DNA of 64,000 bases from a virus (Duplodnaviria; Heunggongvirae; Uroviricota; Caudoviricetes): the IMG/VR virus record IMGVR_UViG_2648501839_000008; one strand, written 5' to 3'. The notes below the pieces were generated by a model. The model ran no database searches. It was given only the letters and a program-made list of their open reading frames with translations, and was not told the DNA's origin. Both the position numbers and the translations under genes were made by a program. Numbering within the stretch: the stretch's first letter is position 1; every line of letters starts with the position of its first letter. This document shows, piece after piece, positions 48,172 through 49,984 of the stretch.

Positions 48172-48230
48172 GACCTGCTTCCGTATATTTAATAAGTTAC
48201 TTATTATTTATATATATACAGAAACAGGTC
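48172..48230. terminator. Long hairpin downstream of the KAP NTPase gene; twin of 1638-1696
   Basis: GACCTGCTTCCGTATAT ... ATATACAGAAACAGGTC with an AT-rich loop containing AATAAGT-T-ACTTATT. Confidence 0.5.
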
Positions 48231-48238
48231 ATGAATAC

Positions 48239-49942
48239 TTAATTATTAAGCAATCTGCTCACACGTAGTTTGTTAAGACTTGATCTAGAGGCCAGTTTCG
48301 TTAATGCACCTATTGCTTTATTCGTGATTTTTTGCTGTTCTTCTGTTAGTTCTTGCATACTTTTGAATCTGAGCAACCCCTTTCTCACTAAATCCAAAGC
48401 ATCCTGATTGCGGGATAGTATCCACTTTAAATAATCATCTTCAGAGAAACTGTTAAGATATGCTATGTCACTATGATTAAATTTGCCTTCAATTATTTTG
48501 TATAAAACATTCTCTAAATTAGTCTCTTCAGGCTTCTTATCCATCAATTTTTTTTGAATTAGCAGACCTAACTTTTCGTTACCAAATATCTCTACATACA
48601 AATTCCGAAAAGCAGTATAAGCATCATCTTGGCTAACAAAGGCATCTGCATATGCCTCTATATAACTATCACAATCAATCTCCAATCTATTTAAGATATC
48701 AATCAAGCCTATGAAGTGAGCAACAGGTATGTGTGAAAGATTGTCGTTAATTACACATTTTATCTTAGAAATAAACTCAGATTCATTGTCCTTGAATGAG
48801 TCACTAAAAATATCCCAAACATTGTTAACATCACATAAAGCCTTGTGTTCTTTATATTGTTTATTTTTTTCTTCTATTATACCTCGAATATTGCTTTCAG
48901 TAGAAAGATAACCATTCTTGAGATAAAAATCTATGTCATCATCGAAAGCAATTTCCGCTCGTTCATAAATAACATCAAGACTATTAATAAATGAATATAC
49001 AGAATCATCCTTTTTATCATCTAACATGTAATCAAATACATGTATGTTTTTAATTGATTCTTTAAACAAGGCATAATCAACACCTGGAACACCAGAATAG
49101 TAAACCACTGAAAACAGAACCAATCTATTGATAAAACTTTCTCTAACCTTATCCTCTGCCAAGCTTAGCTCATTCCTAAGATTAACCAGAGATGTTTTTA
49201 TTTTATTTAATATACGGATATTTTTAATGCCTAAGTCATTTGCTAAGACTTTTAACAAAAGAAAATCAGAATCAGTTTCATAAAAAACTTTACGTAAGTT
49301 CTTCTCAGGCGTAGGATCGTATTTTATTTCGACATCAATTACTTTTTCTCTGTACTCTAAAAACTGTTTTTTTGCAGTTTCATCATGTAAATTATCTTCA
49401 TTTAAAATTAGAACAACTTTGCAACCTTTTCTTCTTGCTAATTCATCAATTACCCCCATAATTTCTTTAACTTCTAGCGAATTACCTTTTCTTTCAACAT
49501 CATCAATACAAACCAAATAATTATTAACAAATTTATACTCAAGAGATGACAGCAGGTTATCTGTTTTGAACCCAAAAAAATCGTTCTTTCCGAAATGTAT
49601 TAAAAATTTTGACAAGGAGTTGTATTTCAACCATCCCCAAAACCCATTTCTATAACGAATCATAGTTCGATCCGTTTCAGATAAAATTAGTTCTTTATAT
49701 TTCTTTTCATTAATTGGTGTGGCACAATGATAAAGAGCTTTTTTAATATCACCAATAGAGTTAACCCCAAACAAAGAAACATACGAATATGCATTAAAAT
49801 CTAATCCTTCAGAATGCTTAGTATAAAAACTATTCCAATAATGAGTTTTACCAACGCCCCAATCTCCTTTTATGACGGCAACCCGATGATCTGAAACTAG
49901 AAAATTTTTTAGAAATGATTCTATCGATTCCATTAGTATCAA
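48239..49942 (-). CDS. KAP-family P-loop NTPase
   Basis: N-terminal Walker A in VAVIKGDWGVGKTHYW, Walker B VCIDD; 567 aa with markedly lower GC than flanking genes. Confidence 0.75.
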   Translation of the reverse strand: MILMESIESFLKNFLVSDHRVAVIKGDWGVGKTHYWNSFYTKHSEGLDFNAYSYVSLFGVNSIGDIKKALYHCATPINEKKYKELILSETDRTMIRYRNGFWGWLKYNSLSKFLIHFGKNDFFGFKTDNLLSSLEYKFVNNYLVCIDDVERKGNSLEVKEIMGVIDELARRKGCKVVLILNEDNLHDETAKKQFLEYREKVIDVEIKYDPTPEKNLRKVFYETDSDFLLLKVLANDLGIKNIRILNKIKTSLVNLRNELSLAEDKVRESFINRLVLFSVVYYSGVPGVDYALFKESIKNIHVFDYMLDDKKDDSVYSFINSLDVIYERAEIAFDDDIDFYLKNGYLSTESNIRGIIEEKNKQYKEHKALCDVNNVWDIFSDSFKDNESEFISKIKCVINDNLSHIPVAHFIGLIDILNRLEIDCDSYIEAYADAFVSQDDAYTAFRNLYVEIFGNEKLGLLIQKKLMDKKPEETNLENVLYKIIEGKFNHSDIAYLNSFSEDDYLKWILSRNQDALDLVRKGLLRFKSMQELTEEQQKITNKAIGALTKLASRSSLNKLRVSRLLNN

Positions 49943-49956
49943 TCCTTTAATTCATA

Positions 49957-49982
49957 TATTGGGCGTAACAAACGCCCAATAT
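49957..49982. terminator. Hairpin between the par operon and the KAP NTPase gene
   Basis: ATATTGGGCG-TAACAAA-CGCCCAATAT inverted repeat. Confidence 0.5.
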
Positions 49983-49984
49983 AA

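Follow-up and report, generated by a model that had tools for sequence, protein, structure and literature searches.

A soluble KAP-family P-loop NTPase gene as a candidate single-gene defence cassette in an SSU5-like phage-plasmid

The KAP gene and its slot in the phage-plasmid

We analysed a stretch of 64,000 nucleotides (hereafter the window) from the IMG/VR virus record IMGVR_UViG_2648501839_000008, and examined a gene encoding a KAP-family P-loop nucleoside triphosphatase (NTPase) that lies between a partition locus and a replication operon, as a candidate defence gene. At 99% identity, the region matches non-mobilizable plasmids of about 110 kb from E. coli and Shigella, for example that of O104:H4 2009EL-2050, and likewise 'Escherichia phage CMS-2020a'. 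For the backbone, matches were found in Salmonella phage SSU5 and in Klebsiella relatives. By these matches, the window is identified as an SSU5-like E. coli/Shigella phage-plasmid.

Comparison with sister elements placed the breakpoints of homology at 48228-48236 and 49984-49987. The latter coincides with the stop codon of the 119-aa parB-like gene, and the swapped segment contains one open reading frame (ORF) only (Table 1). Among 737 plasmid records matching the 3.8-kb region, 23 cover at least 80% of it. The KAP cargo was found in 23 PLSDB records (19 with the window allele and 4 with a second allele), and the same slot holds PD-T4-3-like cargo in 135 PLSDB records, DUF2971/PDC-S31 cargo in 26, and a membrane-protein pair in 7. 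At this position, Cyrano and SSU5 carry a DUF2971 protein that matches PADLOC PDC-S31 (E=3e-41 and 2e-33), and pRHBSTW-00905_2 carries a GIY-YIG protein on the opposite strand that matches PD-T4-3 (E=1.3e-23). PD-T4-3 was reported in SSU5-group elements of E. coli and Shigella by a DefenseFinder survey of phage-plasmids, in which a KAP system is unmentioned (bioRxiv 10.1101/2025.09.12.675607). As judged by these alignments, the slot is a hotspot of interchangeable cargo, part of it known or candidate defence genes.

An earlier note on this DNA, made from the sequence alone, had described the gene as a self-contained single-gene module in a phage-plasmid backbone, and the synteny comparison agrees with this description. 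The note had also named universal conservation at this position, with a housekeeping role, as an outcome that would speak against its view; this outcome was not seen, as the gene is present in only about 23 of 737 relatives.

We also found a 32-nt spacer 100% identical to the KAP gene in type I-E arrays of clustered regularly interspaced short palindromic repeats (CRISPR) in 5 E. coli chromosomes (L010 1501-1532), where the array is located between ygcE and queE. By this perfect match, E. coli has acquired immunity against an element carrying the KAP gene. The protospacer adjoins an ATG protospacer-adjacent motif (PAM), one of the interference-proficient type I-E PAMs.

In pTLYA-2, the slot (L002 3938-5105) holds two small proteins of 250 and 140 aa, with hydrophobic segments and of no known family. 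This cargo and the KAP cassette have a common leader region and ribosome-binding-site context (window 49918-49984), and the common stretch suggests that cassette exchange uses it.

Table 1. Features of the KAP cassette and its flanks in the window
Feature	Position	Strand	Remark
Coding sequence, 564-aa KAP-family P-loop NTPase	48239..49933	-	stop codon 48239-48241, ATG 49931-49933
Shine-Dalgarno AAGGA	49943..49947	-	9 nt before ATG
N-terminal NTPase core and helical lid, aa 1-257, predicted AAA+/STAND-like fold	49163..49933	-	
Walker A G23-D-W-G-V-G-K-T30 (GDWGVGKT)	49844..49867	-	
Walker B region Y139-LVCIDDVER148, KAP-type hhhhDDxxR	49490..49519	-	
C-terminal all-alpha solenoid-like domain (predicted), aa 258-564	48242..49162	-	last ~200 residues vary between alleles
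Backbone hairpin followed by T-run, terminator-like	48172..48230	-	closes slot before replication operon
Cassette-borne hairpin, no U-tract	49957..49982	-	directly after parB-like stop
Swapped segment (cargo slot)	48237..49983	.	homology breakpoints against sister plasmids
Upstream backbone	49985..51012	-	ParA-like ATPase 50344-51012 and 119-aa parB-like partner 49985-50344
Downstream backbone	47316..48065	-	conserved 249-aa protein heading DnaB-like helicase and primase genes
Protospacer	49205..49236, ATG PAM 49237..49239	-	inside KAP gene; 100% spacer match

Sequence and predicted structure of the KAP protein

The program-made ORF list gives a minus-strand ORF of 567 aa starting from TTG (48239..49942), and this was the length stated in the earlier note. 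We consider the ATG at 49933 to be the real start because it is preceded by an AAGGA Shine-Dalgarno sequence and yields a product of 564 aa, in agreement with 564-aa database proteins. The family and the Walker A motif given in that note stand, and only the length is corrected.

The family assignment was checked with profile searches. Pfam KAP_NTPase (PF07693) matched aa 15-257 on positions 12-278 of the 293-position profile (E=1.5e-5, 24.9 bits), a weak match yet above the gathering cut-off of 20 bits, and PF07693 is precomputed for nearly all homologues among the matches listed, which supports the proposed family. The two motifs that define KAP proteins, Walker A GxxGxGKT/S and Walker B hhhhDDxDR, are represented by GDWGVGKT (aa 23-30) and LVCIDDVER (aa 140-148). 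An alignment of 33 homologues (27-77% identity) revealed 37 invariant residues, including G23, W25, G26, G28, K29, and T30 of Walker A and Y139, C142, D144, D145, E147, and R148 of Walker B. The invariant set also includes the candidate sensor-1 N178, arginine finger R195, sensor-2 N238/R240, and a C-terminal LNxxRV motif. In PHROGs, the protein matches phrog_4740 over its full length (E=1e-165), a group annotated 'unknown function', and the NCBIfam profile search gave no match.

The AlphaFold model is confident (predicted local distance difference test score 83.7) and shows an AAA+/STAND-like ATPase followed by an alpha-solenoid. No transmembrane segments were predicted in the protein, with the highest 19-residue Kyte-Doolittle score being 1.35. 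An insert at aa 95-126 is non-hydrophobic and of low confidence or disordered, and it occupies the place of the membrane helices in classical KAP proteins. Such classical members, as Aravind and colleagues reportedly described in 2004, typically carry two or four transmembrane helices within the P-loop domain. Because of the low hydropathy score and the non-hydrophobic insert, the protein is predicted to be soluble, that is, a KAP variant without the transmembrane helices typical of classical members. Searching the PDB chains with the family profile returned nothing at E<=1. A profile search with the C-terminal domain alone, which was limited by its word index, returned the same family only and no alternative domain fusions.

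Distribution and divergence of the family

The family profile, built from the 33 homologues, retrieved at least 1,657 clusters at 50% identity (E<=1e-30). Almost every cluster among the matches listed is 540-610 aa long and matched end to end. In IMG/VR, 88 viral contigs carry KAP-family relatives. A variant all but identical to the window protein (P0002) was found on 928 contigs, and the gene is truncated or frameshifted in a few records.

We examined the surroundings of 38 dereplicated loci. In 14 of them, the homologue is located between P2 gpA and the genes for portal gpQ and terminase gpP, a position known as the old/tin antiviral hotspot of P2-like phages (PMC9122126). One of these loci belongs to an E. 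coli P2 prophage; the other occupants of that slot are AIPR, PIN, or AAA genes, beside a HEPN gene. Other relatives were found inside the transfer genes of an integrative and conjugative element (ICE) in Salmonella salamae, beside IS66 in Oleispira, in a Mu-like prophage, and beside a small integrase island. Neighbour clustering of the 38 loci revealed no conserved partner gene apart from phage backbone genes. The family members are always lone genes, and they recur on mobile elements.

In Shewanella algae, a distant member (L015 10570-12180) is followed about 0.8 kb downstream by an OLD-like TOPRIM/AAA_15 ATPase gene of GajA/OLD type. This locus holds the only homologue outside phage hotspots that has an adjoining known defence-type gene.

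The KAP ORF has a GC content of 0.306, compared with 0.452 for the whole window and 0.48-0.49 for the flanking genes. It is the lowest value of all 1704-bp segments (mean 0.452, standard deviation 0.034), at about -4.3 standard deviations, so the gene is much more AT-rich than its neighbours, as had been noted. The earlier note had read this composition as a sign of recent acquisition, and here it was not borne out. In each of the 38 dereplicated loci, which come from many hosts, the homologue exceeds its flanks in AT content (mean GC difference -0.15; more than 0.05 in 37 of 38), and the same-slot Klebsiella and Citrobacter alleles, of 39-44% identity, are equally AT-rich. We therefore rejected AT-richness as a clock for recent acquisition. 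It is a trait of the whole KAP family, which marks foreign-type cargo and gives no date of acquisition.

The gene is more divergent between elements than its surroundings. The KAP protein of plasmid AR_0104 unitig_6 is 76% identical to that of the window, compared with 99-100% for the flanking proteins, and the same-slot proteins of the Klebsiella and Citrobacter phage-plasmids are as distant as given above, with backbone proteins 82-93% identical. The second E. coli allele, that of NZ_CP020118, matches the window allele at 80-100% identity over aa 1-360, but at only 50-63% over aa 361-564. The non-synonymous (dN) and synonymous (dS) substitution rates between alleles are both higher in aa 361-564, and dN/dS is 0.1-0.4 along the whole gene, which indicates purifying selection on a functional gene. 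As judged from these alignments, the distal third of the protein is exchanged or fast-diverging, as expected of a specificity-determining region.

Hairpins and expression

The island had been described as bracketed by hairpins on both sides. Both hairpins are real: the left one folds at -25.7 kcal/mol (z -6.7) and the right one at -18.9 kcal/mol (z -5.7), and for each of them 0 of 200 shuffled sequences folded as well. The right hairpin belongs to the cassette, as described. The left hairpin is kept in all SSU5-like relatives regardless of cargo, including the Klebsiella and Citrobacter elements, so we assign it to the backbone as a terminator-like element and not to the island. A terminator scan called neither hairpin as a canonical terminator, and an Rfam search of 47800-50500 gave only sub-threshold chance matches on the hairpin.

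Each cargo type has its own, different perfect hairpin just after the parB-like stop (window 49945-49995 and the equivalents in L001, L002, L003, and L005). The position of this hairpin is conserved and its sequence is not, and it has no U-tract; candidate roles are mRNA end protection, attenuation, or a recombination boundary. An integron attC-like role was considered and rejected, because the stems are short, perfect, and of 10-11 bp and do not have the architecture of attC.

The parB-like gene and the KAP gene are just 51 nt apart, and no convincing promoter of the latter's own was found, so the KAP gene would be expressed by read-through from the parAB-like operon across the cassette hairpin. 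Transcription would end at the backbone terminator hairpin.

Comparison with known systems

The best PADLOC match of the window protein is PDC-S49 (E=2.8e-22, 77 bits), over aa 6-226 on positions 8-214 of the 624-position profile. The match is thus partial, and the C-terminal domain of the window protein is left unmatched. All 33 homologues match PDC-S49 in the same partial pattern (best E 2e-29), and the P2-hotspot relatives align collinearly with it to profile position 397-482 of 624. Like the window protein, PDC-S49 is encoded by a single gene and has a similar length (560-630 aa); however, the window family scores about 77-100 bits, far below a true member. Rather than a PDC-S49 member, the window protein seems to represent a divergent branch within a PDC-S49-like superfamily. 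A literature search for 'PDC-S49' found nothing.

PifA of plasmid F (NC_002483) offers a second comparison. This KAP NTPase excludes phage T7 by an abortive response triggered by T7 proteins (PMC13552941). Both proteins have a Walker A of the form GxWGxGKT and a Walker B of the form hhhhDDxxR, both act as or are predicted to be single proteins with no recognised effector domain, and both are plasmid-borne beside replication and partition genes. In contrast to the window protein, PifA has 741 aa and an unrelated C-terminus, and it is encoded in an operon with pifC. Homology between the two was found at the P-loop motifs only, with an hhalign probability of 32% over 72 columns around Walker B and a BLASTP match of E=0.08 over 17 residues.

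Other single-gene KAP systems have been validated. EF_KAP and related gut KAP NTPase fusions from the RADS study gave up to 6 logs of protection, for which Walker B and the C-terminal region were required (PMC13552941). EF_KAP resembles the window protein as a single-gene KAP P-loop NTPase with a large C-terminal region of unknown fold. It differs by description in having two membrane helices, of which one lies within the NTPase domain, whereas the window protein has none, and EF_KAP and the related fusions come from Firmicutes hosts (E. faecalis). Reve is a single-gene KAP P-loop system from the P4 hotspot that protects E. coli (PMC13586616). By description, it shares with the window gene its host E. 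coli, a mobile-element hotspot, a single gene, and the KAP P-loop annotation, but it resides in P4 satellites and not in phage-plasmids. Tmn, a YobI/KAP-like transmembrane NTPase, couples ATP turnover to phage sensing (PMC13001434). It is also a single P-loop NTPase; however, it is membrane-embedded and acts by Mg2+ export and plasmolysis, unlike the predicted soluble window protein, and the PADLOC Tmn models did not match the latter.

The window protein is also set apart from STAND/Avs proteins and RADAR RdrA, since it has no N-terminal effector domain (its Walker A begins at residue 23) and no RdrB-like partner gene. Pfam nSTAND3 scored 16.3 bits against a cut-off of 27.2, and the tripartite effector-NOD-sensor arrangement of the STAND class was not found. 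Single-gene defence by KAP NTPases is an already known kind (2025-2026 work), and the window family is a new candidate member of it, related to PDC-S49.

Proposed function and alternatives

We propose that the KAP gene is probably a single-gene defence or exclusion cassette, with which the lysogen acts against other phages or mobile elements. The location argues for this role: the SSU5 slot alternates between the KAP gene, PD-T4-3, and PDC-S31/DUF2971, and relatives recur in the P2 gpA-gpQ hotspot. The PDC-S49 match points in the same direction, as do the lone-gene habit on mobile elements, the intact catalytic motifs, the allele divergence under purifying selection, and the validated KAP systems, and the suggestion of the earlier note that this is a candidate single-gene anti-phage or anti-plasmid system is credible.

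Several observations weigh against this proposal. The PDC-S49 match is limited to the N-terminal NTPase, and PDC-S49 is itself only a candidate. The best structural matches are Cdc6/Orc1, TnsC, and MuB, which are DNA-loading ATPases, and the gene adjoins replication genes. No effector domain, toxin, nuclease, NADase, protease, pore-like fold, or partner gene was found. A promoter scan revealed no convincing sigma-70 promoter of the gene's own, and several distant homologues are lone insertions among ordinary chromosomal or housekeeping genes with no defence neighbours. The defence role of the family is a candidate one, proposed from sequence, context, and predicted structure.

Given this lack of an effector domain, a toxin fold, and a partner gene, the killing or blocking step of the mechanism can only be inferred. 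The solenoid could serve as the sensor, with a phage-made protein or nucleic-acid structure as its ligand. On binding, the ATPase would assemble into an ATP-dependent oligomer, in the manner of STAND, Cdc6, and TnsC-type switches, and since there is no separate effector domain or partner gene, the oligomeric ATPase itself may be the effector. By sequestering or remodelling its target, the oligomer could prevent phage replication or packaging. Alternatively, it could abort infection in the way that the KAP protein PifA acts against T7. Any specific mechanism of this kind is tentative and far less secure than the defence or exclusion role.

A bolder version holds that the effectorless soluble KAP family confers immunity alone by a mechanism undescribed in bacterial defence, for example sensor-triggered, ATP-driven assembly on, or remodelling of, a phage replication or packaging intermediate in the manner of a Cdc6/TnsC-like loader, with the slot being an undescribed par/rep defence hotspot. 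We regard this version as speculative and somewhat doubtful.

The alternative that survives best is a competition or exclusion factor directed against related phage-plasmids or plasmids, through superinfection exclusion or an incompatibility-like effect, and not against phages in general. The gene sits on a temperate phage-plasmid beside maintenance genes, like the pif operon beside rep and sop in plasmid F. The C-terminus differs between alleles, and relatives occupy the P2 old/tin slot, where the classical genes serve to exclude specific phages (PMC9122126). However, the family is also present in chromosomes far from any plasmid, the validated KAP systems protect against lytic phages (PMC13552941, PMC13586616), and no sequence feature separates exclusion from general defence. 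We consider this narrower role rather unlikely.

Less probable still is that the gene is non-defence cargo (a 'moron'), for example an anti-defence or host-physiology factor that has its insertion site in common with defence genes by chance. Phage-plasmid hotspots do also carry anti-defence and toxin-antitoxin genes, some occupants of this slot are unknown membrane proteins, and the KAP protein has no effector domain. However, anti-defence proteins are not typically 65-kDa ATPases that have intact catalytic motifs and a variable domain resembling a sensor. The PADLOC candidate-defence match, the recurrence in the P2 antiviral hotspot, and the validation of the KAP domain class as defensive (PMC13552941, PMC13586616) also speak against it, so we give this explanation little weight.

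The structural matches and the neighbouring replication genes also raise a replication or maintenance accessory, that is, a Cdc6/Orc1- or TnsC-like AAA+ loader aiding the DnaB-like helicase or the partition system. We rejected this role as very improbable. The gene is absent from about 97% of related plasmids whose backbones are 96-98% identical, with unrelated genes in its place, and its homologues stand alone in chromosomes, an ICE, and Mu-like and P2-like prophages, without linked replication genes. The structural likeness concerns the generic AAA+/STAND core, which is also matched by RADAR RdrA, Avs5, and plant NLRs.

The strong AT-richness and the few truncated or frameshifted records might suggest a selfish or decaying remnant that no longer has a function. 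This explanation is largely refuted by the dN/dS between alleles, the 37 invariant residues, the retention of full length across at least 1,657 clusters, and the occurrence of P0002 on 928 contigs, and it is the least probable of all.

If the cassette is defensive, it would have consequences beyond this element. Clinical E. coli, Shigella sonnei, Salmonella, and Klebsiella commonly carry SSU5-like phage-plasmids, and lysogens of this plasmid lineage would have an altered phage-sensitivity profile, which is relevant to phage therapy and typing. The par/rep cargo slot would be a place to mine new systems, including the membrane-protein pair, and a function would be assigned to a large soluble KAP family with members in the P2 hotspot, ICEs, and Mu-like phages. 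The protein would also serve as a tractable example of a defence ATPase without a separate effector. The family is large and effectorless, occurs in phage-plasmids that are common in the clinic, and escapes current defence finders.

Other variable regions of the window

The next slot, located between parA and the lysis genes (51189..52309, minus strand), is likewise variable. In the window and some relatives, it encodes two proteins of 250 and 127 aa with no family match, and in Cyrano, AR_0104, and the Citrobacter element it holds a DUF1778/GNAT (KacAT-like) toxin-antitoxin pair (L001 6061-6895, L005 7043-7841, L013 7195-7992).

A second strongly AT-rich island lies at 36900-38500 (GC <0.36) and adjoins a tyrosine recombinase gene (35386..36489) and a glutaredoxin-like ORF. 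It contains an ORF of 420 aa (37120..38382, plus strand) whose product is hydrophobic at the N-terminus and matched nothing in Pfam or PADLOC, and which may be another cargo gene.

Finally, we found a 332-aa DUF4365 protein (PF14280, E=1e-15) encoded by an AT-rich gene at 26132..27130 on the plus strand, with a GC content of 0.38, next to the DNA polymerase III alpha gene. Its N-terminal part matches the PADLOC restriction-endonuclease-like domain of Argonaute-associated proteins (E=1.7e-10), and we regard it as a second defence-like candidate in the window.

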